DNA of 64,000 nt from Candidatus Bathyarchaeota archaeon (GTDB lineage: Archaea > Thermoproteota > Bathyarchaeia > 40CM-2-53-6 > RBG-13-38-9): positions 224,001-288,000 of the forward strand of contig CAWECG010000003.1 of NCBI GenBank assembly GCA_963807605.1, read 5' to 3'. Both the position numbers and the translations under genes were made by a program. Below the pieces are notes generated by a model, which had not been told where the DNA came from, searched no databases, and saw only the letters and a list, made by a program, of their open reading frames with translations. Below, one piece after another: positions 24,022 to 46,207 of the stretch. Position 1 is the first letter of the stretch, and every line of letters starts with the position of its first letter.

Positions 24022-24077
24022 CTTGTGCATGGGTCGTAGCGCGCGCTAGACTAGGTTCCAGCGCGTGCGTCGTCAAT

Positions 24078-24446
24078 CTAGAAGGTAATCACTCTGCAAG
24101 AATTGTTCTTGAGAAACTGTGTTAAAGGCTCTCCCATGTACTTGACTTCTATCCCCAACGCTTCGAGATCGTCGGAGACTCCATACATGTCTGAACACCT
24201 TTTGCAAGCCATTAATTTAACACCGATCTCTTTCATCTTGGGTAAATAGGCCTGCAGTTCTGTATCGACTGACATGAGTTTGGAAGAAGGACCCCATACA
24301 ATCAGGTTGACTTCTTTCCACCATCCCTTCAGCTTGGAGTTCAAGGTATACATGAACACCATCTTCATTGCTACTTCCCTATCTCCACTACTCCATACCA
24401 CTACAAGTTCTGATGGCTCTGTTGACTCTCTATCCATGTTTGACAT
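24078..24446 (-). CDS. DsrE-family protein
   Basis: LIVWGPS, ACKRCSD.YG. Confidence 0.85.
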   Translation of the reverse strand: MSNMDRESTEPSELVVVWSSGDREVAMKMVFMYTLNSKLKGWWKEVNLIVWGPSSKLMSVDTELQAYLPKMKEIGVKLMACKRCSDMYGVSDDLEALGIEVKYMGEPLTQFLKNNSCRVITF

Positions 24447-24650
24447 CTCCCTCTTGTTCTCAATCTCCGAGGTTGTTGAACGTTGACTCTAAGTTCATAT
24501 TTAGTATTTCGCACGGCCTCTAAAGACTCGTGACCGCCTAGCCTGCCTATGTTCTTCTCAATCTTCAATCTATAGCGGAGGCTTTCTAAGCGCGCGCTGT
24601 CCATCTCAAAAGACTCTTAAGTTTCTCTACAATAGTGAGACCGAGTCGTT

Positions 24651-25052
24651 TTGACTATCGAGAAGGGTTTTGGTCCAGAATTTCAGGAAGTCGGTTCGCG
24701 TCTTTATCGAGCCGAGTATGGTGTGATCTCTATCGCAATTATCGGGTATCTTGCTTGGCGGGGCCTCTTCCTCGGCGGGATTAACGTCTTTCAAACAGTA
24801 TTTTGGGCGCTCTTTCCTGATTTGGTAGCCTTCATACCAATCGGTTTGTTGTCGAAGCGGCGAGAATGGCCCGAGTGGGGTGCCTACCTCTACAACGCGA
24901 TTCACAATGTGATCGCTTGGGGGCTTGTGTTTACGGTGATCTGGATTGTCCTCGGGGTTACAAGTTGGCCTCTATTTGGCTGGTTGGGACACATCACGGT
25001 CGATCGCACGATTGGTTACGGCTTGAGGAAGCTCCCTCCCAAGAAGTCGTAG
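24651..25052 (+). CDS. DUF4260-like membrane protein
   Basis: FPDL, YNAIHN, HITVDRTIGYGL. Confidence 0.8.
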   Translation: MTIEKGFGPEFQEVGSRLYRAEYGVISIAIIGYLAWRGLFLGGINVFQTVFWALFPDLVAFIPIGLLSKRREWPEWGAYLYNAIHNVIAWGLVFTVIWIVLGVTSWPLFGWLGHITVDRTIGYGLRKLPPKKS

Positions 25053-25232
25053 CCTCATTCTTTCTTTGCTAGGCCAAATGTTGCGCTAGGTCAAATCTTA
25101 CGCACAAGCAAGAGCGCGCGCTGAAATACGGTGCGCTCCATCTGACCATGATATTGAGATATGCATAGAGAGAGGAAAGGTTCGAACGAAGCCGTGGAGT
25201 CAACTTATTCATAACCGAACAAGTAGCGCGCT

Positions 25233-26348
25233 TCACATAGTCCGCTTTGACAGCAATGTCGCTATGGGCAAGAATATGATAATGCTGATTACGAGTATCA
25301 AGAGATCTACGGATACCGCATTAAAGTTCAATCCAAGATACATGATTCGTCTTAGAGCTTCGTTGCCGTAAGTCCATGGAAGCATTCTTGATATGAGTCT
25401 ACCACCGGCTGGCAGTATCTCAGGCGTCGTAAAGGCCCCTGACAATTGAAATAGCGGAAAGGTTATCGCAATTTCCATAATCGTCAAAGTCGCGGAACTC
25501 CGAATTCTCGAGGATATCATTAGACCTAATGATAATGTGAACATAGAGATCAGAGATGTGGTGAGATAAATCAGTAATATGTTGCCTTTGATAACCAAGC
25601 CATCAAGTATGAAAATTATGAGTACGAATGATGTCCTCATTGAGTTGATGACGAGAGCTGCGGCCATCTTGCCTCCATACATTGAGAAAAGATTCATGGG
25701 GGTCAGCACAAGCCGAGTAAAGGTGCCTCGCTCACGTTCTCTTGTTACAGCATTGACTGCATCATCAAAGGCGCCTAGAATTGTTATTATCCCGAGAAAT
25801 CCAGGCAATATATAATCCCCGTTGGCAGGGCGACCTGAAACTGGTTTCGGTTCCACATCAACAGATACTAACCTTAGATTATATTGAGCGTTTAGACTTC
25901 TCAATAGTTCTTGCGATCGCTCAAGGACCGCTCGATAAACCAAAAGACTTGCCGTAACTTTTGAGTTATCGGTTTGCAGCAAGACAAAAGCCACCTGAGA
26001 GGTGAGGAGCCTATTGCCAAAACCTTCCGGTATAGTCACTGATCCGATAGCTTCACCTGCTTGAACGATTTCCAAAGCCCGTTCCTGAGTTTGCACAAGC
26101 TGATCAACTCGAATATATTTGGAAATAGAAAGTTCATCGATGAACATTTTCGATTGAGCTGATTCATCTAGATCAGCTACGACAATGGGGACTGCATGCG
26201 GATCACGGAATGCTCCCGTGATCACAATAAACATACTTATCAAGAGTATAGGAAACATTATCGTCAGAGCTAGGGACAGTGGATCTCGGCGCAGCTGCTT
26301 CAGTTCTTTTTTTGCGATTGCGGCGGAGTCGCGAATAAGAGAATTCAT
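25233..26348 (-). CDS. ABC-2 type exporter permease
   Basis: KELKQLRRD, RERERGTFTRL..TP. Confidence 0.88.
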   Translation of the reverse strand: MNSLIRDSAAIAKKELKQLRRDPLSLALTIMFPILLISMFIVITGAFRDPHAVPIVVADLDESAQSKMFIDELSISKYIRVDQLVQTQERALEIVQAGEAIGSVTIPEGFGNRLLTSQVAFVLLQTDNSKVTASLLVYRAVLERSQELLRSLNAQYNLRLVSVDVEPKPVSGRPANGDYILPGFLGIITILGAFDDAVNAVTRERERGTFTRLVLTPMNLFSMYGGKMAAALVINSMRTSFVLIIFILDGLVIKGNILLIYLTTSLISMFTLSLGLMISSRIRSSATLTIMEIAITFPLFQLSGAFTTPEILPAGGRLISRMLPWTYGNEALRRIMYLGLNFNAVSVDLLILVISIIIFLPIATLLSKRTM

Positions 26349-27508
26349 GCAACGAGCCTCTCGCGGGCTGCCTTGAGGATGAGATATGCTAGAGCGTAGA
26401 AAAGCACTATAGATAATCCGACGAATTGCAGCTGATAGGTTAGGCTTGTCAAGGGCTGACCTATAAGTACTGTAAGTTTTAAGATATCAATTGCGTACGC
26501 CCAGGGCAAGTAATTTGAAATTATTAAAGGAAGTCCTTTCATCAATACCTTATCTATAATAGAACCGCTGAAGGCAAACAGAAAGAGGACTAAGAAGAAC
26601 TCGATAATTACCACCGCGCGAATCCCGATCCCTAGCGATGATATGAGCAAGCCGAATCCCATTGTTAGGAGTGCAATCAGAACAGTAATGGCTAACAAGG
26701 TCAAGAGATCAGTGTTGATACGAGCACCGTATGCGAAAACAGCCAAGCTGAGAACAATAATTGTCCGAATTATGTTCAGACCCAAGTCGTACAGTGTCTT
26801 CCCAATCATTATGGCTCCAAGACTGACGGGACTTACGAGTAACCGCGAATAGGTACCTTCTTCATGTTCTCGAGACATGCCTCCAGCTATCTCATAGAAG
26901 GTTGCAAAGACTATTACTAACGACATGGTAATCGTCAATCCTAGTGCGAAGCCAGAAAACTGGGTTCCCTTCTGAATGACTTGAATTGTTGAGAAACCTT
27001 CTACTTCTATGTACGGAGACGGTGGAATTTGTGTTGCAGGATTGAAGGTTTGGACAGTTGCATTTACAGCTGAGAGAACTGCGGCGGAAACTCCCGGCGA
27101 ACCATCATCAATATACACAACAATGGTGCCTGTCTGATTTCTCATTAATCTATCTTGAAATCCCTGTGGGATGATGACGGCAGCATAAATCGAGCCTTTT
27201 CCCATGGCCTCAAAGGCGTTATCTTCACGGTATCCTTGAATTAACCTATTGAATTTATCTGACCTAACTAATGTTTCATACAGGCGACTTGAAGCAACAG
27301 AGTGATCTTCGTCAACAAACGCCATAGGAAGCGCGGCTGTCGGTTTGAAAGTCGTTCCTGCTCTTCCTTGTCCAGCTCCCAACGAGGCGGTGAAAAAAAA
27401 GGGGATAACTACAAGTGAGATAAGAATTGCGGATCGGTTACGCCTAAAGACCCAAAATTCATTAGTCATTACAGCAAATATGTCTCTTAATATTTGCATT
27501 TTAGTCAT
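26345..27508 (-). CDS. ABC-2 type exporter permease
   Basis: REHEEGTYSRLLVSP, six TM segments plus extracellular domain. Confidence 0.88.
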   Translation of the reverse strand: MTKMQILRDIFAVMTNEFWVFRRNRSAILISLVVIPFFFTASLGAGQGRAGTTFKPTAALPMAFVDEDHSVASSRLYETLVRSDKFNRLIQGYREDNAFEAMGKGSIYAAVIIPQGFQDRLMRNQTGTIVVYIDDGSPGVSAAVLSAVNATVQTFNPATQIPPSPYIEVEGFSTIQVIQKGTQFSGFALGLTITMSLVIVFATFYEIAGGMSREHEEGTYSRLLVSPVSLGAIMIGKTLYDLGLNIIRTIIVLSLAVFAYGARINTDLLTLLAITVLIALLTMGFGLLISSLGIGIRAVVIIEFFLVLFLFAFSGSIIDKVLMKGLPLIISNYLPWAYAIDILKLTVLIGQPLTSLTYQLQFVGLSIVLFYALAYLILKAARERLVA

Positions 27509-27556
27509 GCTACTTGCAATCCATTGAGGTATTACATTATGAGCCGTTTAGGTAGT

Positions 27557-28585
27557 TCATGTTCTTCGACGAGATTTCTCCGCAAAACGATCTATTTCGG
27601 CTTCACCCCCTGTTAACGAAATGAATGCTTCCTCAAGCGTCGGATCCTTCTTACCAATAGCTCTAATTCTTGCTCCTGAACTGACAAGCAAGCCTACAAC
27701 TTTGTCTTCAATCTCTTCGTCTTCTTTTCTGATACAAGTGATTCTGAGCATTGGGTCATCATACGTTACTTTACATACGCTAGCCAGATTCTGAATCTTC
27801 TCAATCGTGACGGAGTCAAGACGTGGTGAATCGGCTTCTATCACAGCCTGTTCAGACACAGTTTGTCTCAAATCAGCCGGCGTGCCTATCTGTATCAACC
27901 CGCCCTCAAATATTATTCCTACACGATCACAAATCATCTCAGGTTCTTGCATGTAGTGTGTGGTCCAGATGACTGTCACACCCTGATCGCAAAGATTCCT
28001 AGTAAACTCCCGGAGCGCCACCGCTGATTGAGGATCCAGACCAGAAGTTACCTCATCAAGGAAGAGGATCTTTGGATCATGGACAAGTGCTGCAATGATC
28101 ATTGCTTTTTTCGTCCAACCGCTGGAAAGCTCCCTTACTAGCAGCTTTGATCTCTCTCGGAAATTGAACATCTCCAAGAGCTCTCTTATCCTCTTCTGAC
28201 CCACCTCACTTGGTAGACCGTATAGTGTGCTGAGCAACTTCAGGTTCTCCTCGATGGTTAGATCCTTGTAGAGTGACACACCATCAGATACTACTCCGAT
28301 TCGGCGTCTAATTTCGGCGGCTTCCCGTCTGAGATCATACCCCGCTACTGTTGCGGTTCCTCTTGTCGGCTCAAGAAGAGTGCAGAGCATACGCACGCAG
28401 GTCGTCTTTCCTGCACCATTAGGACCCAGTAGGCCGAACAGTTCACCGGATTCAATATTGAGGTTTAGACTATCGACTGCGGTAAAATGTCCAAAGACTT
28501 TTGTCAGATCGACTGTTGTGATTGCGTTCTTTGGCAAAAAAAATCCCGTAGTTAAATCGACTTTGAGCCACTTTCCTGTGAACAC
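27557..28585 (-). CDS. ABC-2 exporter ATP-binding protein
   Basis: GPNGAGKTT, LSSG, FLDE..SGLDP, TTHYM. Confidence 0.92.
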   Translation of the reverse strand: MFTGKWLKVDLTTGFFLPKNAITTVDLTKVFGHFTAVDSLNLNIESGELFGLLGPNGAGKTTCVRMLCTLLEPTRGTATVAGYDLRREAAEIRRRIGVVSDGVSLYKDLTIEENLKLLSTLYGLPSEVGQKRIRELLEMFNFRERSKLLVRELSSGWTKKAMIIAALVHDPKILFLDEVTSGLDPQSAVALREFTRNLCDQGVTVIWTTHYMQEPEMICDRVGIIFEGGLIQIGTPADLRQTVSEQAVIEADSPRLDSVTIEKIQNLASVCKVTYDDPMLRITCIRKEDEEIEDKVVGLLVSSGARIRAIGKKDPTLEEAFISLTGGEAEIDRFAEKSRRRT

Positions 28586-28688
28586 TCTTAAACTTTTCTA
28601 GAAATAGTAAACAATGCGTTTGTTAAGAAAATCGCACATCCTACTCAAGACGGAGAGCACAAGCGCGCGCTATAACGTTTCCTTCACG

Positions 28689-29237
28689 TTACGGTGGTGG
28701 CAGGTTTTTTGAGACTGGACCGATATTGATCTGAACATATGTGCCTCCATCAGTGCCGTCTCCAGATGTAGTTATGGCAAGCCAGAATACGCGAGGATTG
28801 GCAGATGGAGAAATCGCAACGGTGAGCGTGCTCCTATAAAAGGTCACTCCGACTGGAGTTGGAATAAGCAATACGGCTACAGGAGAAAATCTTGTGATCA
28901 TAACTGGCAATTGAGTTCCTGCCACTGTTACTGGAGTCGCTTTCAGAGATAACTCAAGGGGATTACCGTGGAATATGCGTCCATACGTACCTGTTGTTAT
29001 CGTTATGTTAATGTCTTGAGTGCCACCTGAAAGTGGAAATGTGAGAGAAGGTTCTGACGCGACGGAATAGTTGAGATTTGCAAATGGGGCTAATGCAGGC
29101 ATTTGCGGCACCGATTCCTTCTTTTCCGTTAGGGTTCTAATGCTTGAGAATGAAAACAAAGAGACGGCTAAGGCGACACAACAGACGACAATCAGCGTCT
29201 TTCTACCAAGAAACATTCTTGCGGACACGTCGAGCAC
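28689..29237 (-). CDS. Hypothetical secreted beta-rich protein
   Basis: Signal peptide; bounded by GCGC boxes at 28662 and 29270. Confidence 0.55.
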   Translation of the reverse strand: MLDVSARMFLGRKTLIVVCCVALAVSLFSFSSIRTLTEKKESVPQMPALAPFANLNYSVASEPSLTFPLSGGTQDINITITTGTYGRIFHGNPLELSLKATPVTVAGTQLPVMITRFSPVAVLLIPTPVGVTFYRSTLTVAISPSANPRVFWLAITTSGDGTDGGTYVQINIGPVSKNLPPP

Positions 29238-29474
29238 ACGTTGCTGTAACTATTAAATAAAAGCTACGTAGCGCGCGCTCAAAAGAGAAGGCTTGACATA
29301 CTTTATGATGAATCTTCTCAAGCTTCTCCTTAATCTCGCCTAGCTCCTTGATGATCTTGCCTTGATTCGTATTTAGCATCTCAATTTCCGAATGGATACT
29401 ATCGAGACACCTCATCAAGCGCACGCTTGTCAAAAGCAGTCTTGAGAAGTGGGAAGTCTAGCGCACGCGTTCTA

Positions 29475-29627
29475 TCAGTAGATTTTTTCTACAACAGCTG
29501 ACAAAATGCAGAGACCTGCACCCAGGATGATAATTCTGAACAGAAAATTCTCAACTGCCAACAGCAATCCGACCCAAGCAAGAAAGAAGCCAACCCACCC
29601 AACTACATGAAATATCCACTTTTCCAA
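29475..29627 (-). CDS. Unannotated 50-aa two-TM protein
   Basis: TTG start after GGGGTGA; MEKWIFHVVGWVGFFLAWVGLLLAVENFLFRIIILGAGLCILSAVVEKIY. Confidence 0.55.
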   Translation of the reverse strand: MEKWIFHVVGWVGFFLAWVGLLLAVENFLFRIIILGAGLCILSAVVEKIY

Positions 29628-29910
29628 CTGTATGATCACCCCCTATTCTACCAGTGCAGCGCGCGCTCAACATCCTGCATCGTCAAGTGGGTGTAGACCC
29701 TGACCATATGTGGTCTACGTCAGCCGAATAACTTCATAAATTCTCGGTCAGTAAAGAGCTTACAATCAATCGCTCGCGTATGCCTCATCATACGGGTCAT
29801 CGTCCTCTTCTTAAGGACCTTCCGGCCCATCCGCTTGACAAGCGCGCGCTACGGAAACTAGAGAGAGACCTCTGAAACCTGAGAAATCTTCTCGAGGAGG
29901 CTACTGAATA

Positions 29911-30480
29911 CTAAGGTGGCGCAGTCACTGTGATCGTCCATTGACAATTTGCCGAGTAGATTCTCAAGAAGTATGTTCCCGGTCCATCATAGACCATTAT
30001 GTGGTCTTCACCATAGCCGTCGTACGATGCCCCATCAATGAAAGCTCCTTTGCTGGCACCTTGCGGATAGACGAAAATCTCAAGGTTTACAGCCCGGGGG
30101 TCTGCTTTCCCACTTGTATTGAATTGGATCTTCCAGTAATCAGTTGGTATCGTGAAATTTTCAGTCATCTTTTCACCCGTTCCACTGAATGAGTATTTGA
30201 CTGGGGTCGAGGGCGGAGAAGCTGTTGGGATAACAAGAGGTGAAACAGTTGGTGTTTGAGTGACTGCTGGCCCGGAGACGGTTTGGGTGACTGTCTGTAA
30301 AACTACCACTTGACCTCGGGGAGCAAAACCGACGCCTACTGCAACTCCTATGAAAAATGCGATAAAGATGATTGCTAGAAGTTTCACCGTCATCTTTGAA
30401 GTTGAGGAGTTCCTCTGTGTGGTAGCTGTTACAGATGGTGTTGGGGAATCTGTCGGTGTCTTAGCTTCAGTCATGCACAA
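29911..30480 (-). CDS. Membrane-anchored protein with extracellular beta-sandwich
   Basis: TM helix, T/P-rich linker, FSGTG..T..F.I...W, GTYFLRI...WTITV. Confidence 0.65.
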   Translation of the reverse strand: MCMTEAKTPTDSPTPSVTATTQRNSSTSKMTVKLLAIIFIAFFIGVAVGVGFAPRGQVVVLQTVTQTVSGPAVTQTPTVSPLVIPTASPPSTPVKYSFSGTGEKMTENFTIPTDYWKIQFNTSGKADPRAVNLEIFVYPQGASKGAFIDGASYDGYGEDHIMVYDGPGTYFLRIYSANCQWTITVTAPP

Positions 30481-30688
30481 TACCGATTAACTAACTTAAC
30501 CAATAAAGACGATTTAGGATTTGTCATATCAGCAGAAGAAGAAGTCGGCGTGAGCTAGCAGCTTCCTTTGTTAAGATTCTCTAGTTGTTTCAGCTTCGCA
30601 AGCAGGTCGGGTCTGCAGCTGCACGGTTACTCAACCCGTGGTACTCTCTATCAACCACTTTGAAGCGGTTAAGCTTCAGGATACCCTC

Positions 30689-31702: not shown

Positions 31703-31954
31703 GATCCAGCTCCCTTCGATACGACGAAATAGAAGACCTTGCTAACTATATGAGTTCGCCACCAACCCTTGACGATGCGATTTTGCTTGCGGTGCAAGCG
31801 ACGCGCGCGTAGAATGGTTCTTCAAGACAGGAGAAGAAAGAGAGCCAGAACTTAAGATCAAGCGCGCGCTAAGTTTTCTATCCTCCTAACACTTTCTTCG
31901 ATTGACGCTAAGCGTCAGTCATCGGGCCTAGCAAGACGTCAGATTCTGTTGGTG

Positions 31955-32017
31955 TTGTGTGTGCTCACCAGCTATGGCGCACACACAAAAAATCTAACGA
32001 TTCAAATAGCGCGCTAG
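31955..32017. repeat. ~60-bp hairpin repeat, copy 1
   Basis: TTGTGTGTGC...GCACACACAA stem, then TCTAACGATTCAAATAGCGCGCTAG. Confidence 0.85.
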
Positions 32018-32059
32018 AGGCTGATCGAGTAACAGGTACGAGCAAAGGGGAGTTAAGAG

Positions 32060-32611
32060 TTGACTATAAGAAACCTGAGCAAAGCAAAAGAAGCCTCTAT
32101 AATCGCAATATCAGCAGCCATTTATTCTGTATTCTTTTCTTTATCAGTTGTTCTAACACTACCGGGATTCACCATCCTCTACCTCCCCGTAATTTTGCTA
32201 GGAGTCTTTCCTCTTTGGTTTGGATGGAGCGGGTTAGCTGGCAGCATGATTGGAGCCTTCATTGGAGGTGCCTTCGTCGAGGGTTTAGGCTTTACTGGTG
32301 TAATAGAGTCGGTTACTGCTTTGATCATTTATGGCCTTAATAGGATTCTTATTCCCCAGAAAGCTACTGAGTTAAAGACAAAAAGGGATCTATTTCTGCT
32401 CTTAGTCGTGTATGCTGTGAGCCTCTTTGTGGGCACAAGTTACATCTTTTGGCAATATGTAATTTTGGGAGTGTTTAGCGCAAGAACCGCTGAACTATTC
32501 TTCTTGCCAACGTTTGGTCTTAACCTAGCTATCCAATGGATCATCTGCCCAGTTCTGATTAAGAGATTGTCGCCAAAACTGAAAAGCTTAGGAATCTATT
32601 CCGGAAAATAG
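32060..32611 (+). CDS. QueT/ECF S-component-like membrane protein
   Basis: AISAAIY, PLWFG..G.AG..IGAFIG; five to six TM segments. Confidence 0.6.
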   Translation: MTIRNLSKAKEASIIAISAAIYSVFFSLSVVLTLPGFTILYLPVILLGVFPLWFGWSGLAGSMIGAFIGGAFVEGLGFTGVIESVTALIIYGLNRILIPQKATELKTKRDLFLLLVVYAVSLFVGTSYIFWQYVILGVFSARTAELFFLPTFGLNLAIQWIICPVLIKRLSPKLKSLGIYSGK

Positions 32612-32772
32612 GTTACCCATCAGCTAGACCAATATGTTGGACTGGCCTACATTCCACGATCAGTTCCACGCCAAAAGCATCACAACAACGTGGAATTCCA
32701 GTGGAGCCAGTTATCTATATCTCATATCTCCTGGTGCGGTCGCCAAAAACCGGCCCGTTAGGCCAAGGCAAT

Positions 32773-32830
32773 TTGTGTGTGCTCACCAGCTATAGCGCGC
32801 ACACACAATCTAACGATTCAAATAGCGCGC
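32773..32830. repeat. ~60-bp hairpin repeat, copy 2 (terminal GCGC box interrupted by an IS)
   Basis: Near-identical to 31955-32017. Confidence 0.85.
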
Positions 32831-33935
32831 GGGGTTGTCCCGTTATTAGCGTTTTCATGTTAGGTTTGTCCAGTAGGTTATGCTTCTGGTTTTGGTGGGT
32901 TGTTTGGTGTTGTGTGAGGCTTCTATGGTGTAGAGGAGGCATAGTATGCAGTAGCTGATGTGGATGGTGATGTTTTCTAGTCCTCGTGTCTTGTGGTTGT
33001 TGAGGTTGAGGTGTTCTTTGAGTGATGCGAAGACCAACTCGATGATGGAGCGTTTATTGTAGATGTGTTTGAGGTTTTCTGGGCCGTGTGTTTTGAAGTC
33101 GCTGGTTACTCTGAGGATGTTTTGTCTTTCAGGTTTCTGGTTGGCTGGGTAGGGTATCGCGGTCTTGATTCTGTGTTTTTTAGCGGTCTCTCTGAGTCTG
33201 TTGCTGGAGTATTGACTGTCAGCGGTTAGCTGTCGGATTCTGGTTGCTGTGGTTTTAACTGTCATTTTGAGGAGTGGTATGCTCGGTTTCTTCTCGTTAG
33301 TGTTTGCTGGTGTCACTAGGAATGTTAGGGGTGTGGCTGTGTCTGTATCGACTGTTAGGTGTAGTTTGTAGCCTAACCCGTATGTGCGGTAGGCTCTTCC
33401 TACACGTGCTTGAGGGTCACTGAAGCCTGTTCTATTGTTTATGTTTCGTCTGCTGTAGGCTTTGATGAAGGTGGCGTCCATAGCAACTATTCTTGGTGTT
33501 ACATAGCGCTTCTTCAGTAATTTCTTGACCTGTTTGTTTACTATGCGTCTTAGTCTTCTTGTTCCTAGTCGCTGGTTGAATCTTGAGAGTACCGTCCTAC
33601 CGTAGGCTGGCTCCTCATATCTTATGTCGCATATGTCACGTAGCCGCTCATCGATCCATAAGCGACGTTCAAGCTCACGCAGACTGTTTATTCTGAGGTA
33701 GCGTCTGGCAAGGTGTGCCTTGAAGAGTCCTAGAGGGTTACGTGGAGGTTTACCTGGACCTTCTTGATGATAGCAACTAACAACTAGACGTTCAACAAAT
33801 GATAAATCCAGATTACTCAGCAGTGACTCCAGAGTCTCGTACCCTTCTATCTGGAATCTCCTCCAAGTAGAAGGGTGCGGGGCTCAACCCTTATGGATCT
33901 TTCCGTGTCAACTCAAAGAATATCGGGACAACCCT
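32831..33935 (-). mobile_element. IS5-like insertion sequence, 1105 bp
   Basis: TIRs GGGGTTGTCCCGTTATT / AGGGTTGTCCCGATATT; flanked by GCGCGC at 32825-32830 and 33936-33941. Confidence 0.9.
32855..33850 (-). CDS. DDE transposase (IS4/IS5 type); frame open upstream of the ATG at 33481, start non-canonical or frameshifted
   Basis: Manual translation gives IEGYETLESLLSNLDLSFVERLV...GKPPRNPLGLFKAHL, continuous with MDATFIKAYS; paralogous to 22550-23617. Confidence 0.82.
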   Translation of the reverse strand: MEGYETLESLLSNLDLSFVERLVVSCYHQEGPGKPPRNPLGLFKAHLARRYLRINSLRELERRLWIDERLRDICDIRYEEPAYGRTVLSRFNQRLGTRRLRRIVNKQVKKLLKKRYVTPRIVAMDATFIKAYSRRNINNRTGFSDPQARVGRAYRTYGLGYKLHLTVDTDTATPLTFLVTPANTNEKKPSIPLLKMTVKTTATRIRQLTADSQYSSNRLRETAKKHRIKTAIPYPANQKPERQNILRVTSDFKTHGPENLKHIYNKRSIIELVFASLKEHLNLNNHKTRGLENITIHISYCILCLLYTIEASHNTKQPTKTRSITYWTNLT

Positions 33936-34040
33936 GCGCGCTAGATTGTTGATGTTGCTGCGCCTCGCGTGCTCAGGACTGGTCATTGAAACCGTGAACG
34001 TTCCCGCCCTACCGCGCACGGGAAGATACACGCTTGCAGG

Positions 34041-34439: not shown

Positions 34440-34497
34440 ACGACTCAGTTACCCCTCTAGTCACCCGTTCCGGTTCTTAAAAAAGCGCGCGCTATTT

Positions 34498-35454: not shown

Positions 35455-35458
35455 CTTT

Positions 35459-37324: not shown

Positions 37325-38419
37325 TTGGGACTACCCGAGAAGATCAAAGCAATAGAAGAAGAGATGAGTAAGACCCAGATCCACAAACACACTGAGCATC
37401 ATATCGGACTTTTGAAGGCAAAGCTTGCAAGGCTGAGGGCTGAGCAAGAGAAGATACAGAGCTCTAGGAAAGGCGGCGGCGTTGGCTTTGAACTGAAAAA
37501 AGGCGGCGACTGCACCGTTGTCCTTATAGGCCTACCAAGCGTTGGAAAATCCACGATACTGAACAGACTGACTAATGCAAAGTCAAAAGTCGCGCCCTAC
37601 GCCTTCACCACTCTAACCGTTATTCCTGGTCTGCTTGAATACAAAGGTGCAAAGATACAGATCCTTGATCTTCCAGGCATAATTGCTGGCGCAGCAACTG
37701 GAAGCGGCAGGGGAAAAAGAGTCCTCTCCGTCGCCAGAAATGCAGACCTAATAATGCTGATTGTCGACGTATTTCAGCCCGCCCAGATAGAAGTCTTGAA
37801 GAAAGAACTTCACACGATGGGCATCAGACTCAATACTCATCCACCTAACATCAGTATTGATAGATCATCCCAAGGCGAGCTCGGTGTAACAGCAGCCTGC
37901 AAGCTGACTAAACTGTCCAAACCCACGGCCAAAGCGATACTGAACATTTACGGGATCCATCATGGAAACGTCATCATAAGAGAGGACATCACTGACGACG
38001 ATCTCATCGATATTGTGGCTGGAAACAGGCGATATGTGCCGGCAGTCAGTGTCCTGAATAAGATCGACCTAGTCAGTCACGAGTACGTGGCTGAAGCCAG
38101 AAAGCAGACACGCGAAGACTTCGTACCGATATCTGCTGACCGAAACATCAACCTTGAAAGCCTAAAGGAGGCCATCTACGACCGTCTGAATTTTGTCAGG
38201 GTCTTTCTTAAGCCGCGCAATGGTGAACCAGACTTTGACGAGCCACTCATACTCACAGCAGGATCCACCATATCAGATGTTTGCGCCAAGATTCATCGAA
38301 GAATTGCTGACGAAGCGAAGTATGCACTGGTTTCTGGAACCAGCGTGAAGTTCAGTCCTCAACGCGTTGGAATGGACCATGTCATACGCGACCGAGACAT
38401 AGTGACAGTCGTAACCTAA
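37325..38419 (+). CDS. DRG/Rbg-family GTPase with TGS domain
   Basis: GLPSVGKST, YAFTT, DLPG, NKID, C-terminal TGS domain. Confidence 0.93.
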   Translation: MGLPEKIKAIEEEMSKTQIHKHTEHHIGLLKAKLARLRAEQEKIQSSRKGGGVGFELKKGGDCTVVLIGLPSVGKSTILNRLTNAKSKVAPYAFTTLTVIPGLLEYKGAKIQILDLPGIIAGAATGSGRGKRVLSVARNADLIMLIVDVFQPAQIEVLKKELHTMGIRLNTHPPNISIDRSSQGELGVTAACKLTKLSKPTAKAILNIYGIHHGNVIIREDITDDDLIDIVAGNRRYVPAVSVLNKIDLVSHEYVAEARKQTREDFVPISADRNINLESLKEAIYDRLNFVRVFLKPRNGEPDFDEPLILTAGSTISDVCAKIHRRIADEAKYALVSGTSVKFSPQRVGMDHVIRDRDIVTVVT

Positions 38420-38516
38420 GCGCGCGCTCTCTCGCTGACGCACACGTCAGGCTGTTCAATCTCTCGTATATTGATTGGTCGAAGGTGTCACAGATACGCA
38501 CGCGTGGAGAAATCTC

Positions 38517-39086: not shown

Positions 39087-39212
39087 CTTTTACAAACCTC
39101 CACTTCTTGGTTTCTCAAGTCACTAATTGTTGAAGAATAGTGTCTCTTAAACAACTATTTCTCTCACCTAATAGGAGAGTCGAGTCTTCTTGGGATCTTA
39201 TTGTCATTCGTA

Positions 39213-39815
39213 TCAGTACTGGTAGTGTATCTGATATGTTCGTGCGTGGGCTGAAAGATTTCTGCGGTAAAGGCCGTATAAGACGCCAACAAATAGGCCT
39301 GCAAGGTGAGCTCCATGAGCGATTTCAGAAGGACCGAAGAGTCCTGTGAAGTCAAGAAAAGCCCAGAGAACTGCGGCGGCTATCATGGGCAACGGCAAGA
39401 GTCCATATATGTATACTAGCATGAATGGTGCAAGAGTTGCCAAGGCTCCCATAACTCCGTAGATCGCTCCAGACGCACCTATGGCTGGAGTGTAAGGATC
39501 CGGGCTCGTCAGCATGTATCCAACGTTTCCGATTATTCCCGACAAGAAAAAGAGTGCTAGGAAGGCTCGACCCCCGATCATTCTTTCTAGACTCGTGCCA
39601 AAGAAGAACAGGGCTATCATGTTGAAGAAGAGATGGGACAGATCAGCATGCAGAAAAATCGATGTCACAAACATCCACGGCGCGCTTAACGCCACTCCTG
39701 GGAAGAAAGCCAGATAAATCCATGAGTCGGTGATATTCTGGAAGACAAAGGCTACCACACAAATACCGATGAGTATCAGAGTCCACTTTGAAAAGTAATC
39801 CATGGTCTTCTCCAC
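39213..39815 (-). CDS. Rhomboid intramembrane serine protease
   Basis: HLFFNM, GASGA, AHLAG. Confidence 0.92.
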   Translation of the reverse strand: MEKTMDYFSKWTLILIGICVVAFVFQNITDSWIYLAFFPGVALSAPWMFVTSIFLHADLSHLFFNMIALFFFGTSLERMIGGRAFLALFFLSGIIGNVGYMLTSPDPYTPAIGASGAIYGVMGALATLAPFMLVYIYGLLPLPMIAAAVLWAFLDFTGLFGPSEIAHGAHLAGLFVGVLYGLYRRNLSAHARTYQIHYQY

Positions 39816-40044
39816 ATATTGCCTTCACAAGAAGGCCGATGATCTTCTTTAAGATTTATGAAATCCTTAGCTTAATCATTCCAAAGGATGAGTGGGAGTG
39901 ATGAGCAACCTAGTTTTGCGAGAAGTCGATGGACTGGAAATCAAGAATCATTGATAATTTTACAGACATATTGATGTCCGAGTCGGCTGGTGCTGAGCGA
40001 GCGCCTTTTGGCAAGGATGAGGTCATGAGACCGGCAGTGCGCGC

Positions 40045-40845
40045 TTACTTATTCTTCCATCTTGGTGTTCTTTTTTCCAGAAGTGCTTTAATTCCCTCTT
40101 CCGTGTCTTCAGATGTGGATGCGAGGGCAATTAGATCTTTTGCGTAGTGCATCGCCTTCACATATTCCATGTCTCCCATCATGTAGAAGGCCGGTTTCCC
40201 TATACCATAGGCTAACCTGCTCTTGCTCGAGATCTTCTCTCCAAGTTCAACAGCAACCTCGACATGCTTTCCTTTAGGAACGACCTTATTGACTAGGCCA
40301 AGCTTCTCAGCTTCGGCTGCGCTTATGGGATCTCCAGTGACCAACATCTACAGCGCTTTCTTCCGTCCAACGGATCTCTGAAGAGGTATCATAGGCGTTA
40401 GACAGAATAATCCTATGTTGACTCCGGGAGTCTGAAATACCGCATCCTCAGCGGCAACAATCATGTCACACGCCGCGGCCAAGCCACATCCTGCAGCAGT
40501 TGTATACCCGTGAGCCGCGGCGATCACGGGTTTACTCATTCGAGCAATATTTTCATAGACCATTATCGATTTTGTGAAGAGGTCTCTTTTTTCAAGCGGA
40601 CTGGCTTTCAAGATCTCTCTTAGGTCATGGCCGCTGCAGAAGGCTTTGCCTTCCCCTGCTATCACAGCGGCACCTAACCCGTCGTTCTCTTCAACATATT
40701 CTAATCTATCAAGAATATTGTCGATCATGGGCTCGTTAAGGGCATTCAACACGTGAGGTCTGTTCAACGTGAACAAACCAACGCTGCCTTTCTTCTCAAA
40801 CTTTAATGGCTCACTCTCCAAACTAAATCCTCTCTGTAAGGTCAT
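40045..40845 (-). pseudogene. Enoyl-CoA hydratase/crotonase interrupted by an in-frame TAG at 40348-40350
   Basis: Two abutting same-frame ORFs ...RKKAL*MLVTGD...; FCSGHDL, AAGCGLAAACD. Confidence 0.8.
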
Positions 40846-40927
40846 AATTGGTCTATGAAATGGCAGAGCAATCAGGCTGAAGACTTAACTGTATCGCCCA
40901 ATCATGCTCATCTATTCTGTCAGACCG

Positions 40928-41317
40928 TCAGCCGTGAATTAGGCTCGGTATACATTTGGCGCATACCCATTCGCTTTTCCCCTTGGATCTGACAGGGAAC
41001 AGGACTATGTCCTTCTCTGTCTTCCCACACTTGAAACACATTGCAACTATCTGAGGAGAGGTGTGTGCCTCCTCTGCTAATTCCTTGTGGAAATTCACAG
41101 TCTCTCGCTCCTCAACTGTAAGAGCTCCAGTGGGACATATTCCTATACAAAACCCTAGACCGTCACATAGATCTTCTCTCATTACCTTTGCCTTGCCATT
41201 TGCTATGGTTATGGCTCCCTCAACGCAAGGAACGACGCATTTCCCGCAACCGTTGCAGAGTTTCTGATCTATCTTGACTATGCTTCTTCGCACCTTCGCT
41301 CTTTTCAAATCTTGCAT
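40928..41317 (-). CDS. 2x[4Fe-4S] ferredoxin-domain protein with C-terminal zinc finger
   Basis: CNGCGKCVVPC, CDGLGFCIGICP, CFKC...CAKC. Confidence 0.85.
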   Translation of the reverse strand: MQDLKRAKVRRSIVKIDQKLCNGCGKCVVPCVEGAITIANGKAKVMREDLCDGLGFCIGICPTGALTVEERETVNFHKELAEEAHTSPQIVAMCFKCGKTEKDIVLFPVRSKGKSEWVCAKCIPSLIHG

Positions 41318-41593
41318 TTGACAAAACCACTGATGTACCGACGGTATTTCCCCAGGATCTTCGTGACAATGACTTTGTACCGTGTCTATTAAAGGGTAAA
41401 GATTCTTAGCACGCGAATATGAACTCAAGATCTCATATGATTGTTCTTAACCAAACAATCGGGAACATATTGAATTAGAAAATCGTATTACAAGCAAGTC
41501 AGATCAGCGCGCGCTAAAGTAAAGTATTATATTCGATTTAACAATTCCCGTTAACATTGGACTCTGAATACAAGCCTCTGCAAGTAAAGAACT

Positions 41594-42685
41594 ATGAACA
41601 TTGATCTCAGTTTGCCCTACATTACTGCCGACTTACCGGGTATCGGCGGACAGTTGCGAACAACGCCCAATAACTTCGTCGTTGAAGAGCTGTCTCTTTA
41701 CGAGCCTGAGGGACAAGGGGAACACCTCTATGTCAATCTGACCAGAGAAGGCATGACAACGAGAGAGGTCCAATACAGGCTAGCTGACATATTCGGCATA
41801 ACCCCACGTGATGTCGGCTTTGCTGGTTTGAAGGATAAGTACGCCTGCACAACCCAGACCTTCAGCTTGTTAGTCGGCAAAGTAGATGATAATTTTATTA
41901 ACCAAGCCGCTGAGCGCATCAGAACCAATCTACCTGTGACGGTCAACTGGACGCGACTACACAAGAACAAACTCAAACCAGGACATCTATTGGGTAATCG
42001 ATTCACAATAACCGTGACTAATCCAAAGATCCCACCGGATAAGGCGTTATCCCGAGTCCAAGCGATCGGTACCCGTCTGCAAGAGAGAGGCCTGCCGAAC
42101 TTCTTCGGCCCTCAACGTTTCGGGTTCAATGGCGATAACGTTCAGCGTGGTCTGGAGATTATTCTGGGTCAGCTGCAGAATGTAGATCTGTGGTTGCGAC
42201 GCTTTCTAATCTCCAGCTACCAGAGCTATCTGTGTAACCGTTACTTGGTTCGTAGGTTTGAATCAGGCACTTTTGACCGCATCCTGCTAGGAGACATTGC
42301 TAAGAAATACGCGACCGGGGGCCTGTTCCAAGTGAAAGACGATAGAAAAGAACAACCACGCTATGAAAATCATGAGATTAGCTTCACCGCTCCCATCTAT
42401 GGCCCAAGGATGTGGTCGGCTACGGGTCCAGCAGGAGAACTGGAGGCAGAAATACTTGCTGAGGCTGGGCTAAGCTTGAAACAGTTCGGTGCTGTGCGGG
42501 TTGAAGGTACCAGACGCCTTGGAAGACTGCTAGTCCCAGATCTGAATGTGAGCTTGGAGCCGCAGGGATTGCGTGCGCGTTTTTCCCTGCCCAAAGGAGC
42601 CTTTGCGACCACTATCCTGCGTGAGATCATGAAGGTTGATCTTCAAGATTCCTTAAGTTCTTTCTCCAGCAATACGGAATATTGA
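41594..42685 (+). CDS. truD: tRNA pseudouridine(13) synthase TruD
   Basis: FVVEE, GEHLY, FAGLKDK, GNRF, NFFGPQRFG, LPKGAFAT. Confidence 0.92.
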   Translation: MNIDLSLPYITADLPGIGGQLRTTPNNFVVEELSLYEPEGQGEHLYVNLTREGMTTREVQYRLADIFGITPRDVGFAGLKDKYACTTQTFSLLVGKVDDNFINQAAERIRTNLPVTVNWTRLHKNKLKPGHLLGNRFTITVTNPKIPPDKALSRVQAIGTRLQERGLPNFFGPQRFGFNGDNVQRGLEIILGQLQNVDLWLRRFLISSYQSYLCNRYLVRRFESGTFDRILLGDIAKKYATGGLFQVKDDRKEQPRYENHEISFTAPIYGPRMWSATGPAGELEAEILAEAGLSLKQFGAVRVEGTRRLGRLLVPDLNVSLEPQGLRARFSLPKGAFATTILREIMKVDLQDSLSSFSSNTEY

Positions 42686-42765
42686 TTATGATATTCGGGG
42701 GAAATCGAGATCTCCATAAGCTATTTGAGAAATCCTGCATGGCTTGATGAATGAAGAGATGGCGA

Positions 42766-42886
42766 ATGAAAAAGGTCTCTCTCAAGAGAGAGCTTCGACA
42801 TCTTTACAGCCCCTCAGCGAAAAAGGTCCAGACTCTTGAAGTCCCTGAGATGACTTTTCTGATGATGGACGGTCAAGGCGATCCAA
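42766..42886 (+). pseudogene. N-terminal fragment of a GyrI-like protein, ending at a GCGC box
   Basis: MKKVSLKRELRHLYSPSAKKVQTLEVPEMTFLMMDGQGDP followed directly by AGCGCGCGCT. Confidence 0.7.
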
Positions 42887-42984
42887 AGCGCGCGCTTAGA
42901 ATACACTGGGACGGCCACAGTCAATTCTTGATAATTGAAATGTAGGTTTAAACGGGAGAATTTAGATCGTAGACGTCTACACTA

Positions 42985-43173
42985 CTATTCTTGTGATCTG
43001 TTGCATTGTGGACAGAAAACTTCTCCCAAAGGCATGCCCTTCCCACAGAATCGACAGCTACTAGAAGATTTGATATTAATTGACCCGTCCTTTGAGATGT
43101 CAAGATTAAGTTGTTTCCCCACTTCACCCATTATCTTATTCTCAATAGCTTTAGTGATCCACGACCAAGACAT
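42985..43173 (-). CDS. Small zinc-ribbon protein
   Basis: CRFCG...FCPQC. Confidence 0.6.
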   Translation of the reverse strand: MSWSWITKAIENKIMGEVGKQLNLDISKDGSINIKSSSSCRFCGKGMPLGEVFCPQCNRSQE

Positions 43174-43347
43174 TCATGGATTCCCCCTATACATGTGAGA
43201 GGAGTAACTACTGCCATTTGCAGCTACATTAGGTATCCGGTTCATGTCGCTTAAGTATAACCTTTCCGTTGACGATACTCAACCGAGATAAGCTGAGGAT
43301 AGTCTATATCGATTCAATTTTCCAGAAATGAGAAACCGTGTGAAGTT

Positions 43348-43818
43348 ATGACAGACAACCGAACTCTCATAGCGTACGGATCGAAGATGGGTGCAACCGA
43401 AGAAACTGCTTCTGAAATTGCATCTGTCCTGCGCGAGAAATATCGCTTTGAAGTTGATGTAGTCGATCTTAAGAAAAATCCAACCCCCGATCTCACTCAA
43501 TACAGAAATATCGTGATCGGAAGTGGCGTCAGGATCGGTTCATGGAATGGAAGAGCTTTAAAGTTTCTACATAACGAGTTTGAGGGAAAGAAAGTAGCCG
43601 TGTTCGTCTCTTCCATGATGGCCGGCAATCCAAATACGTACGACGGAGCTTTCACTAAATTCATCAAAGACGTCTTAGGAACTCACGCTCGTTTTGAACC
43701 TGTGGCAACAGCTGCATTTGGAGGGCGCCTGAAGATCCTAGGAATGACTTTGTCGGACAACCGTGACACAGAGAAAATTAGGGCTTGGGCAGACGAGCTG
43801 GGTAAGAAGCTTAGCTAA
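43348..43818 (+). CDS. Flavodoxin-like protein (HemG/Flavodoxin_5)
   Basis: YGSKMGATEE, IGSGV, FGG, D.RD...IRAW. Confidence 0.87.
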   Translation: MTDNRTLIAYGSKMGATEETASEIASVLREKYRFEVDVVDLKKNPTPDLTQYRNIVIGSGVRIGSWNGRALKFLHNEFEGKKVAVFVSSMMAGNPNTYDGAFTKFIKDVLGTHARFEPVATAAFGGRLKILGMTLSDNRDTEKIRAWADELGKKLS

Positions 43819-43844
43819 TCTGCTCACTATCAAATACACTGACT

Positions 43845-44402
43845 CTATTCATTTTTCGAAAAGCCATAGACGCCTATTTTCTTTTGAAGACTCCAGTATT
43901 CGTCTTGGTTGTAGACGAAGGGAGATGCTTTGGTGAAGTCTATCTTCTCCGTCTTATCTAGGATTCGTTGGTCCACGTGAACGCGCACAACCTTGCCGAG
44001 GAAGAGATGATGAGAACCCAAAGGAACCTTCTTTGTGACGACACATTCAATGTTGACAGGACATTCTTTGATAAGTGGGGGTTTAACCTTCTCCGCCGGT
44101 TCAGGTGTAAGCCCCGTTTCAGAAAACTTATTCACATCTCTTCCTGAGACAAATCCGCAGAAGTCTGATATCTTCAGAAGTTCCGTCGTTGGAATGTTGA
44201 CAACGAACTCTCCAGAATCCTCAATCAGTTTACAAGAATATCTGTGAGGACGTATACCCAGTCCCAGCATGGGTGGTTCCGAACACACAACTCCCGCCCA
44301 GGCCAGAGTGATTATGTTAGGCTTTCCTTTAGAGTCTACGCAAGTTACAAGAACGACAGGGCAAGGATAAAGAGCGGTCGAGGGCTCTTTTGCTAGTTTC
44401 AT
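43845..44402 (-). CDS. Flavin reductase-like (flavoredoxin) protein
   Basis: YPCPVVLV, NIITLAW, GEFVVN, ECPVNIEC, GSHHLFLG. Confidence 0.9.
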   Translation of the reverse strand: MKLAKEPSTALYPCPVVLVTCVDSKGKPNIITLAWAGVVCSEPPMLGLGIRPHRYSCKLIEDSGEFVVNIPTTELLKISDFCGFVSGRDVNKFSETGLTPEPAEKVKPPLIKECPVNIECVVTKKVPLGSHHLFLGKVVRVHVDQRILDKTEKIDFTKASPFVYNQDEYWSLQKKIGVYGFSKNE

Positions 44403-44800
44403 AAGCGAGCGTCTCCGATCTTTGCATTTAACCTTTGCGAACTAGCCTCTTTGAATGTAGAACTAACTTATCCATTAACTACGGACTAGAATCTCACGCG
44501 CACTTTTCTGGAATAACTCGAGGTGCGGGGAGTTAGATGACAATTCACGTTTTGAACCAACGAAATTATGATGGAGAAATCATACGCTATGGTTCCGCCT
44601 CAATCGGACAAAAATACGCAAAATATCCTCAAAATGGCCTAATGCAATGGTGCGGGGGGATTCGCGCACCAGTTTACCAGTACATATAAGCCTTCTACAG
44701 ATCTGCGGTGATCCGGTAATTCGAATGATGAATTATAGAGATCCTTGTCGCTGCTGTGGGTCGAATCATTCGTGTGTGCATCAAGTTATGCGTACAGAAT

Positions 44801-46042
44801 CTACTTCAAAACCTGAGGAAGACTCAGGAGGAAAAGAGACGTCACAATGATGATGGTTGCCAAGGCGAGTGTGGTTACAGTTTTTCCCAACTTGTAGCCT
44901 CCCATGATCTTCTGATTCCTCGCAAGAAGCAGTAAAGGTACAAGCACAAATGGTAGCAGCGCTCCATTCAAATACTGTGTAAAGACCATGATCTCAATTT
45001 GGTTTGGCAAAAGGGAAAAAACTGCTGCGACAATTACCCACAAGATAAACAGGAGCCTAAACCTTTTTGCCTTAATTCTTTCTTCGATACCCAAAAAGCC
45101 AAAACTGTTGTAAACACTCCCAAGACCTACTGTAATAACTGCTGAAATACCCGCGCATGCGAAAGCGACACCAAACAATATTACCCCGATATTTCCGAGT
45201 CTATCGTAGAATGGGAGCGCAATATCTAGAAAAGTTTCTATTTGTCTACCCCTGACAAGAATGGCCGCGGTCGCTATGATAACGATATTCAAAATGGTTC
45301 CCATGAGCAGGCTTATAATAGAGTCAATCCTTTGGTTGACTACGGCTTCGTGTTGATAACGAACCAATTCTTCAAGACCGCGATGATGATCGTGAATTAA
45401 TCCCTTCTCGAAAACTAGGCCACTATGTAGTACGACATACGTAGGCATTATCGAAGCTCCTATCAGAGCTTCAGCATAGTAAAGCGACTTTCCACTCATA
45501 GACGGCACAATTGAACTAAAGATGACACTTGTGTAGGAAGGATTCAATTGAACAAACAAATATGCATAAACAAGGAAAACAGCTGTTGCAAGAAAGATTA
45601 CAGTCTTTTCCACTTTACTATAAGATCCCAAGAAAACTAGAAAGACGGTAAGTGAAATTGTTGCGAGTACTCCCAAAATGTAAGGTATCTTAAAGAGAAA
45701 GGATAGGGCAAGACTCAGCCCAATAATCTCGGCAGTCAAAGTGGACAAGTCCAAGAAAAGATATGTAACAAAAAGAAAGCTAGAATAGTTTCTTCCATAT
45801 GTGCGATGAATATTCTCTGCTAGAGTCTTGCGCGTTACAACTCCAAGCCTCGCACTGATCTCCTCTACTATGATTAGAAGTATACCAGAGTAAAACGCGG
45901 CCCACAGAACCTCAAATCCCAATGCTGATCCTGAGGCTGTGGCGGTCACAATACTCGCCGGATCAAAGAGTTCTACTGAGATTAGAACAGCAGGTCCTAT
46001 GACGCCCAAAGTCCTGATTATTTGCTTCAATCTGGGTGACAA
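44801..46042 (-). CDS. NRAMP-like divalent metal transporter
   Basis: DPASI variant of DPGN, ARLGVVT, IGASIMP. Confidence 0.82.
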   Translation of the reverse strand: MSPRLKQIIRTLGVIGPAVLISVELFDPASIVTATASGSALGFEVLWAAFYSGILLIIVEEISARLGVVTRKTLAENIHRTYGRNYSSFLFVTYLFLDLSTLTAEIIGLSLALSFLFKIPYILGVLATISLTVFLVFLGSYSKVEKTVIFLATAVFLVYAYLFVQLNPSYTSVIFSSIVPSMSGKSLYYAEALIGASIMPTYVVLHSGLVFEKGLIHDHHRGLEELVRYQHEAVVNQRIDSIISLLMGTILNIVIIATAAILVRGRQIETFLDIALPFYDRLGNIGVILFGVAFACAGISAVITVGLGSVYNSFGFLGIEERIKAKRFRLLFILWVIVAAVFSLLPNQIEIMVFTQYLNGALLPFVLVPLLLLARNQKIMGGYKLGKTVTTLALATIIIVTSLFLLSLPQVLK

Positions 46043-46207
46043 TTTGGAACCTGCTGAAACACAGCCTAAGACGTAAAAGCAGAAAAAACTACCGGAAGAC
46101 TCACTCGTAATTTAAGCTACCAGATCAAAGGCATATTAATTGCCTCCACATAACCAACGATTTGCGCGTCCCAAAATAGAAGGGAAGATTGAGTTCAAGC
46201 GCGCGCT

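Follow-up and report, generated by a model that had tools for sequence, protein, structure and literature searches.

What would place one short, perfectly palindromic word again and again between the genes of an archaeal chromosome? The window analysed here, a 64,000-nucleotide stretch of a Candidatus Bathyarchaeota archaeon genome (C3:224001-288000; the source genome, G000, has 2.65 Mb in five contigs, C1–C5), raises this question through 13 exact copies of the 10-mer AGCGCGCGCT, here called the box, spread over 22 kb among single genes and small operons. An earlier note on this DNA read the box as the site at which a recombinase builds an array of gene cassettes, in the manner of integrons or of cyanobacterial HIP1. 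Part of that reading stands: boxes mark DNA junctions and bracket single genes or fragments, and breakpoints in relatives and paralogues coincide with them. Its mechanism does not, as the parental DNA is box-free at most breakpoints—which makes the box the product of joining rather than its substrate—and deletions are sealed as often as insertions. We consider it likely that the boxes are de novo scars of break-and-rejoin events, with a self-complementary (GC)4 filler added before rejoining. Judged from the aligned sequences, the scar is written de novo at the joint, mostly as GCGCGCGC with A before and T after.

Abundance and placement of the boxes

All 13 copies listed in the earlier note are present, where dinucleotide-preserving shuffles of the window yield 0.04 on average and never more than 1. 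So too are the 8-mers AGCGCGCT at 25225, 32008 and 54681, and variants at 10701, 24060, 29418, 29460, 31803, 38496 and 57313. Genome-wide, 106 copies of AGCGCGCGCT compare with five of the control word TCGCGCGCGA (its reversal), and the 25-kb bin at window 26000-51000 (C3:250000-275000) is the genome maximum, with 10 boxes against a mean of 0.97 per bin. The lengths of alternating G/C runs peak sharply at GCGCGCGC (147 runs, 106 of them with A..T flanks) and show no smooth, microsatellite-like decay. Outside the run, (T)A is preferred before and T(A) after; past ~2 nt the flanks have background composition and no conservation.

The boxes largely avoid genes, as had been claimed for the window and as a genome-wide count split by coding confirms. 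Only 10 of the 106 copies lie in open reading frames (ORFs) of at least 150 aa (81 expected), and a single copy, against 30.5 expected (a 30-fold depletion), lies in coding DNA conserved with G107, a genome of another family whose record consists of 307 pieces joined by 100-N linkers rather than a closed genome, and whose median protein identity with the source genome is 40%. None of the window's 13 boxes lies in either class of sequence. The genes between boxes are of mixed orientation, the bracketed pieces include gene fragments and snippets of 75-130 bp, and decay of boxes by point mutation is observed.

A palindrome so strongly intergenic could be a functional motif under selection, such as a regulator site, terminator, promoter element, Z-DNA or restriction-modification site. 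Against this, boxes lack conservation at the orthologous spacers of relatives, occur at 5' and 3' gene ends alike and also within gene wrecks, and coincide with homology breaks; a functional motif therefore has almost no chance of being the explanation. A restriction-modification origin in particular was rejected, since GCGC, CGCG and CTAG show no notable avoidance elsewhere in the genome. An assembly artefact is likewise unlikely, because boxes occur in independent assemblies from different sources, decay by point mutation and harbor insertion sequences (IS) with the expected target-duplication flanks.

Some individual runs stand apart from this general placement. One AGCGCGCGCT copy lies in the ribosomal protein cluster (C3:1131785), 8 nt from the L22 gene, so that boxes are not restricted to accessory islands. 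A GCGCGC-TA-(GC)6 run at window 47292-47315 lies in frame within ORF 46395-48050 (-), where it encodes ..SARALARFAG.. in the linker between the two BPD_transp_1 domains of a 551-aa ABC permease; it is a rare box tolerated in a gene, or possibly a joint fusing two permease genes. A (CG)5 run (57312-57321) stands between a tRNA gene and a nitroreductase gene.

Joints compared with relatives and paralogues

Near-identical metagenome contigs (L247, L252 and L253) allowed individual joints to be compared with other alleles. Box 42887 terminates a 46-aa reading frame that is 85% identical to residues 1-41 of 206-aa GyrI-like proteins (PF06445), and the contig encoding the best of these matches, L247, is ~90% identical to window 40.0-44.4 kb. 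The alignment of the two contains three indels, with a GC run at the joint of each. Where the window has box 41506, the interval from the ferredoxin gene to TruD holds two genes in L247, one for a glycosyltransferase and one of 163 aa, and the two breakpoints of L247 (..CAGATC/ACTCC.. and ..CCTAAG/AAAGTAAAG..) carry neither a box nor any GC run. At box 42887, everything from codon 42 of the GyrI-like gene to its stop is missing from the window; the gene is intact in L247. The third indel is the reciprocal case, with AGCGCGCT in L247 where the window has a flavodoxin gene and no GC run on either side of it.

The DUF4260 gene illustrates capture rather than loss. L252 and L253 share ~96% identity with the window across this gene, from the first base after box 24589 to ..GCAAG, the last base before box 25113, and then continue on both sides into unrelated DNA without boxes. 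Such base-exact limits imply that a 515-bp piece was cut from another context and pasted in with one box per joint. For PanE, the contig L248 (86% identical) has only the gene in common with the window, and a (GC)4 run is found in the differing upstream DNA of both lineages.

Paralogous copies within the source genome, and other genomes, give the same picture at further boxes. Window 29466-29658 and 29667-29746 match C3:49070-49266 and C3:49519-49598; the 252 bp between the halves of the C3 49-kb copy are swapped in the window for exactly GCGCGCGC, and that copy has no GC run at either point. The 132-bp fragment 29288-29418 is 97% identical to C1:135178-135309, where the sequence runs on without a box, and the 84-87-bp segment that begins at box 31861 recurs box-free at C3:555617 and C4:447674. 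The spacer between the DRG GTPase and macro-domain genes measures 98 bp in the window, compared with 23 and 26 bp, without a GC run, in G012 and G014. G001, a genome of the same genus, has other genes beside its ABC-2 operon, and these map to C3:968-973 kb in the source genome. The boxes and box-bordered pieces of the stretch are as follows.

24038-24047: box between the rhodanese and DsrE-like genes
24589-24598: box, left joint of the DUF4260 segment
24599-25112 (+): captured segment, 515 bp, DUF4260 gene with a box at each end
25113-25122: box, right joint of the DUF4260 segment and left edge of the ABC-2 operon block
28662-28671: box, right edge of the ABC-2 operon block; nucleotide homology to G001 stops at 28599
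29270-29279: box to the left of the 132-bp fragment 29288-29418
29418-29427: decayed box AGCGCACGCT, right end of the same 132-bp fragment
29658-29667: box standing for 252 bp present in the paralogous copy (C3:49267-49518)
29841-29850: box upstream of a 189-aa gene
31861-31870: box, left edge of the 84-87-bp segment
32824-33945 (-): IS5-like element (Pfam DDE_Tnp_1) inside a box, AGCGCGC / IS / GCGCGCT
34484-34493: box between a 132-aa membrane gene and the SDR-thiolase operon
38419-38505: box, ~67 bp of foreign DNA and decayed box ACGCACGCGT, in the DRG-macro spacer
41506-41515: box standing for ~1.29 kb (GT2 gene and 163-aa gene) found in L247
42766-42886 (+): GyrI-like 5' fragment, first 41 codons, cut at the box
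42887-42896: box sealing a ~0.5-kb deletion of the remaining GyrI-like gene
43296-43830 (+): flavodoxin gene segment, absent from L247, which has AGCGCGCT there instead
46198-46207: box separating the Nramp and ABC permease genes

These cases are not peculiar to the window. When all alternating (GC)4-or-longer runs are considered (n = 320 genome-wide), 70 lie within 6 bp of the end of a self-BLAST alignment, whereas random positions yield 5.3 and positions displaced locally by 40-400 bp yield 11.2. With multi-copy (IS) alignments removed, 53 of the 320 are still on breakpoints (4.7 expected, maximum 11). Four boxes have a low-copy alignment end on each side; three of these join segments that have their other copies at unrelated loci and the fourth is the 252-bp deletion described above. 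Small patches also occur, in which a few parental bases are swapped for a (GC)n run inside otherwise collinear repeats. The association replicates in G107, where 27 of 432 runs lie on breakpoints and 6.3 are expected.

The same evidence decides the fate of the cassette system, in which an unseen recombinase would perform its crossovers at the box. Its attractions are the bracketing of single genes or operons, the dense cluster in the window and one breakpoint in L247 that falls on a pre-existing short box. On the contrary, donor contexts are box-free, and boxes seal deletions and border gene fragments; no sequence is conserved beyond ~12 bp, and orientation is mixed. The absence of an integrase from the window, which had been noted earlier, also holds among the 57 window ORFs scanned with Pfam, a scan in which small ORFs were not covered exhaustively. 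On these alignments the cassette reading is already contradicted by its box-free donor sites, and we give it only a very slim chance.

Fine structure of the joints and a proposed mechanism

Where homology reaches the GC run, the bases at its edge are strikingly regular. The last parental base is A at all six left ends, the first parental base is T at all five right ends, and at joints with an extra T the next parental base is A in six of seven; some joints use 2-4 nt of parental GC. This would fit the pattern expected if a broken end aligns by 1-2 nt on a TA(GC)4TA unit.

A simple sequence of steps could yield such scars. Each 3' end at a break would receive an identical (GC)n tail, with a terminal A or TA setting its alignment; as the tail pairs with itself, any two tailed ends could anneal and be ligated, leaving a palindromic joint of near-fixed length. 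We infer this tailing and annealing because the joint is palindromic and its 8-nt core nearly fixed in length. What the alignments show directly is the outcome: broken ends rejoined to each other produced a deletion (as at box 42887), and ends rejoined to an unrelated piece of DNA captured a gene, a gene fragment or a snippet (as with DUF4260). Selection would remove most joints that fall in genes, such that the intergenic survivors come to look like a cassette array, and existing boxes would later become favoured landing sites for two IS5-like elements.

Insertion sequences at the boxes

The two IS5-like families are almost always found inside boxes. All seven genome copies of the family of 32824-33945 are flanked by AGCGCGC ... 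GCGCGCT, as are nearly all seven full-length copies of the second family (22504-23641, DDE_Tnp_1), although the window copy of the latter has only CGC as its left flank. Such flanks would result if the element entered a (GC)4 box and duplicated a 4-bp GCGC target. In box-poor relatives, IS copies adjoin plain GCGC.

The reverse order of events was considered as well, i.e., that transposons left the boxes as footprints: insertion of an IS5-like element at GCGC would duplicate 4 bp, excision of the element would leave GCGC+GCGC, and IS-mediated rearrangements would place the footprints at breakpoints. The near-constant flanks of both families agree with such an origin, as do an 8-nt core equal to two 4-nt duplications and the IS ends beside GCGC in box-poor relatives. 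Yet flanks of 6+6 nt rather than 4+4 indicate insertion into an existing 8-nt box and not into plain GCGC, and many parental breakpoints lack GCGC altogether (41506, 24589, 25113 and 29658 among them); for these reasons the elements home to boxes and do not create them. Further, the 53 boxes that remain on breakpoints after IS removal have non-collinear flanks, box-rich genera such as g3 have no DNA match to the IS, and each 30-130-bp snippet between boxes would need two IS events. We regard a footprint origin as highly improbable.

Distribution across the class

Box abundance is patchy across a 300-genome sample of the class (families and genera are given under code labels, e.g., f1 and g16). 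In family f1, AGCGCGCGCT counts of 119, 63, 40, 32, 30, 29 and 28 contrast with only 0-4 in two genera of the same family, and in genus g16 a count of 83 contrasts with 0-10. High counts recur in f27 (131, 94 and 65), f10 (60 and 24) and f17 (40, 35 and 30). The motif itself also varies: several f22 genomes are enriched in TCGCGCGCGA and not in AGCGCGCGCT, and G107 holds 104 (GC)5 runs together with about 50 (TAGC)3-5 arrays, which the source genome does not have. The (TAGC) arrays of G107 lie on low-copy repeat breakpoints in only 3 of 52 cases (0.8 expected), too few to show a link to joints. The (TAGC)n arrays of G107 and T(CG)4A in f22 may be counterparts of the (GC)4-5 of the source genome.

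Patchy counts and differing motifs suggest a determinant that is gained or lost and has a lineage-specific output; taken together, they suggest that it is dedicated, transferable and templated by protein or RNA. We tentatively put forward a broader proposal, which could well prove wrong, that an end-tailing activity, dedicated to the task and horizontally transferable, exists in some Bathyarchaeia and adds a defined self-complementary oligonucleotide to any broken end.

Search for the writing activity

Which enzyme could write such a tail? The source genome encodes a canonical PriS, two PriS-like paralogues, a Ku-LigD operon, a PolX-PHP protein and at least three PolBs, as well as a tiny AEP inside a casposon-like element. 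Across the 300-genome sample, neither PriS-like paralogue (C3:72237-73133 and C3:316908-317684) co-occurs with box-rich genomes, and the regions downstream of the first show no conservation between its homologues. Ku does not co-occur either: it was found in none of the 14 other f1 genomes sampled, including the one with 119 boxes, yet in the box-poor family f2 it was found in 26 of 44. PolX-PHP (C1:345080-346909), a promising candidate for its 67-74% identity to copies in distant lineages and the box 6 nt downstream, fails to track the trait in the same sample. In a 50-genome panel, the casposon AEP and the window's PolB paralogue do not track it, and the LigD polymerase domain is found in only 5 of the 25 box-rich genomes, with one match weak and partial. 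PriS is present in all genomes, and its presence or absence is thus uninformative; a PF01896 search of four box-rich genomes from other lineages found only the canonical PriS, with no GC run nearby, in three of them (G293, G107 and G113). A search of five box-rich genomes for reverse transcriptase (PF00078) found none.

Some of these candidates are of interest in themselves. PolX-PHP (L205) shares 61-74% identity with its copies in other families (G107, G004, G038 and G297), and this identity, set against the median of 40% with G107, suggests that the gene was horizontally transferred; a box follows its reading frame by 6 nt and an IS lies upstream. The window's PolB paralogue is a 787-aa family B protein (15262-18956, -) beside a Rad51/RadA-like gene, and its orthologue in G002, G003 and G015 has a TAA stop at about residue 479. 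A cluster at C1:590162-593347 (L030) combines histone-deacetylase, LigD-polymerase, Ku and ligase genes, with AGCGCGCGCT 42 nt upstream of the LigD polymerase gene.

A non-coding template was also sought. When the box flanks of the source genome and G107 are compared, the sole short matches are tRNA genes; box pairs separated by short loops have no common core, and the repeats in which a box lies internally prove to be ordinary genes or patches. The genes that have a box close by in the source genome as well as in G107 are likewise metabolic, transport or ribosomal genes of an ordinary kind.

These searches bear most directly on one specific form that the writing step could take—a form that does not compete with the scar reading—in which a primase-family enzyme would act like telomerase and copy a small partner RNA template, itself containing the joint motif UAGCGCGCGCUA, onto DNA ends. 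A filler of defined sequence and near-fixed length, with ends that seem aligned on A or TA, is what such copying would leave; the motifs are lineage-specific, and RNA- and protein-templated repeat synthesis exists in bacteria. On the other side, no member of the source genome's primase set (canonical PriS, the two PriS-like proteins, LigD polymerase and casposon AEP) tracks box-rich genomes, no pair of primase-like gene and template RNA was found in the source genome, and a search by BLAST only returned no box-bearing non-coding element common to the source genome and G107. We judge this version unlikely.

Weighing the scar interpretation

Several points weigh against reading the boxes as scars of a dedicated activity. 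For 4 of the 13 boxes (24038, 29841, 34484 and 46198) no informative relative was found, and the 3' breakpoint of PanE relative to L248 has no box. L247 carries a short box, AGCGCGCAT, just past the GyrI-like stop, at the right breakpoint of 42887, which implies that existing boxes are sometimes re-used or broken again. Tailing and annealing are deduced from the symmetry and length of the joint. Among the candidates tested, no enzyme or template for scar writing was found, the lack of a box-bearing element common with G107 counts here as well, and the phyletic tests scored AGCGCGCGCT alone, so that genomes with another motif were counted as negative.

If the scar interpretation and the proposed end-tailing are true, broken ends would gain universal sticky tails through which deletions, gene capture and mosaic islands arise, and the process would be a prokaryotic counterpart of chromosome healing via a not yet recognised polymerase, templated by protein or RNA. 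This would address two open questions: how double-strand breaks are repaired without Ku in most archaea, and how foreign genes are taken up away from integrase sites. A constant scar would also provide a genome-wide record of surviving rejoining events (deletions, captures and micro-patches) from which rates and preferences could be measured by sequence, and would explain both the homing of two IS families and the mosaic, "cassette-like" islands in metagenome-assembled genomes of these lineages. Finally, the implied enzyme would write a defined DNA word without an obvious template, which is of interest for DNA-writing tools.

Gene content of the stretch and other features

The 22-kb stretch had been described as accessory. 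Accessory genes are indeed there, but they are mixed with core genes (the DRG GTPase, TruD and thiolase) that boxes adjoin, and the gene order of the cupin-to-TruD block is kept in relatives. The stretch encodes two IS5-like transposases, rhodanese, DsrE-like and DUF4260 proteins, the ABC-2 operon and PanE; the SDR-thiolase operon, a cupin, the DRG GTPase, a macro domain protein, a rhomboid protein and an enoyl-CoA hydratase; and a ferredoxin, TruD, the GyrI-like fragment, a flavodoxin, a flavin reductase, Nramp and an ABC permease. The enoyl-CoA hydratase gene (40045-40845, -) is divided by an in-frame stop at 40348-40350 into two ORFs (165 and 100 aa); as the L247 orthologue is a single 266-aa protein, the stop probably arose by a recent nonsense mutation. 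Elsewhere in the window, Rfam places an archaeal signal recognition particle RNA at 52089-52409 and a tRNA gene at 57419-57509.

A second repeated motif, distinct from the box, consists of TCACCAGCTA after GGTTCAAAT..GCTC and resembles the 3' end of a tRNA gene (T-arm, acceptor and CCA). It has 72 copies genome-wide, with flanking arms of interchangeable simple repeats: (TG)n/(CA)n, (GTC)n/(GAC)n or (GGT)n/(ACC)n. The two window copies (31955-32014 and 32773-32830) bracket a 183-aa membrane gene (32060-32611), and a Cas1-bearing element (C3:796410-805470) ends in the same motif.

Comparison with known systems

No description of such scars was found in the literature searched, and the word AGCGCGCGCT matched only primers and unrelated constructs. 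The likeness to integrons or HIP1 proposed in the earlier note finds no support, given the lack of an extended site or conserved flank, the mixed orientation and the near-absence of boxes from conserved coding DNA. As with integron attC cassettes, single genes are bracketed by a repeated imperfect palindrome; unlike integrons, no integrase was found, there is no 57-141-bp attC with conserved cores, the genes do not share one orientation, and the site is missing from donor contexts. Cyanobacterial HIP1 is a short, highly iterated palindrome that is common inside genes. The box, by contrast, is nearly absent from conserved coding DNA (1 of 106 copies, 30.5 expected) and arises de novo at breakpoints.

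Repetitive extragenic palindromic (REP) elements, which serve as insertion-sequence targets (PMC1525189), resemble the boxes as short, highly iterated palindromes that are favoured IS landing sites. They differ in being imperfect palindromes of 20-40 bp with a GTAG/CGTC head and a cognate RAYT transposase, whereas the box is a perfect palindrome of 10-12 bp; a RAYT gene was not searched for.

End-joining filler is known from bacterial Ku-LigD non-homologous end joining (NHEJ; PMC8656161) and from archaeal break repair mediated by the PriS-PriL-PriX primase (PMC12019639), which can synthesize across discontinuous templates (PMC3333859). The boxes are similar in that deletions and captures are sealed with few extra bases and 0-2 nt of microhomology at the ends. 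They are unlike such filler in being one constant self-complementary word, almost invariable in length, rather than random or locally templated bases. Moreover, in contrast to Ku-LigD NHEJ, Ku and LigD were not found in most box-rich genomes searched, and, in contrast to microhomology-mediated joining by a replicative primase, a constant GCGCGCGC insert stands at joints of parental sequences without homology.

Systems that synthesize defined repeats come closest to the proposed writing step. Telomerase healing and DRT10, a bacterial system of RNA-templated repeat synthesis (PMC12632851), also place a defined repeat on a 3' end held to the template by a few paired bases. The box, however, is no long cap but one short palindromic unit linking two ends, and no reverse transcriptase or template RNA was found in the searches described above. 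DRT3, in which dinucleotide-repeat synthesis is partly dictated by the protein itself (PMC13174585, PMC13314766), shares with the boxes an alternating purine-pyrimidine dinucleotide DNA; it makes long antiviral poly(GT/AC) with reverse transcriptases, while a box amounts to 8-10 nt of (GC)n fixed at a chromosomal joint. The boxes thus fail the defining features of end-joining filler, of telomerase-type healing and of DRT3/DRT10 repeat synthesis alike.

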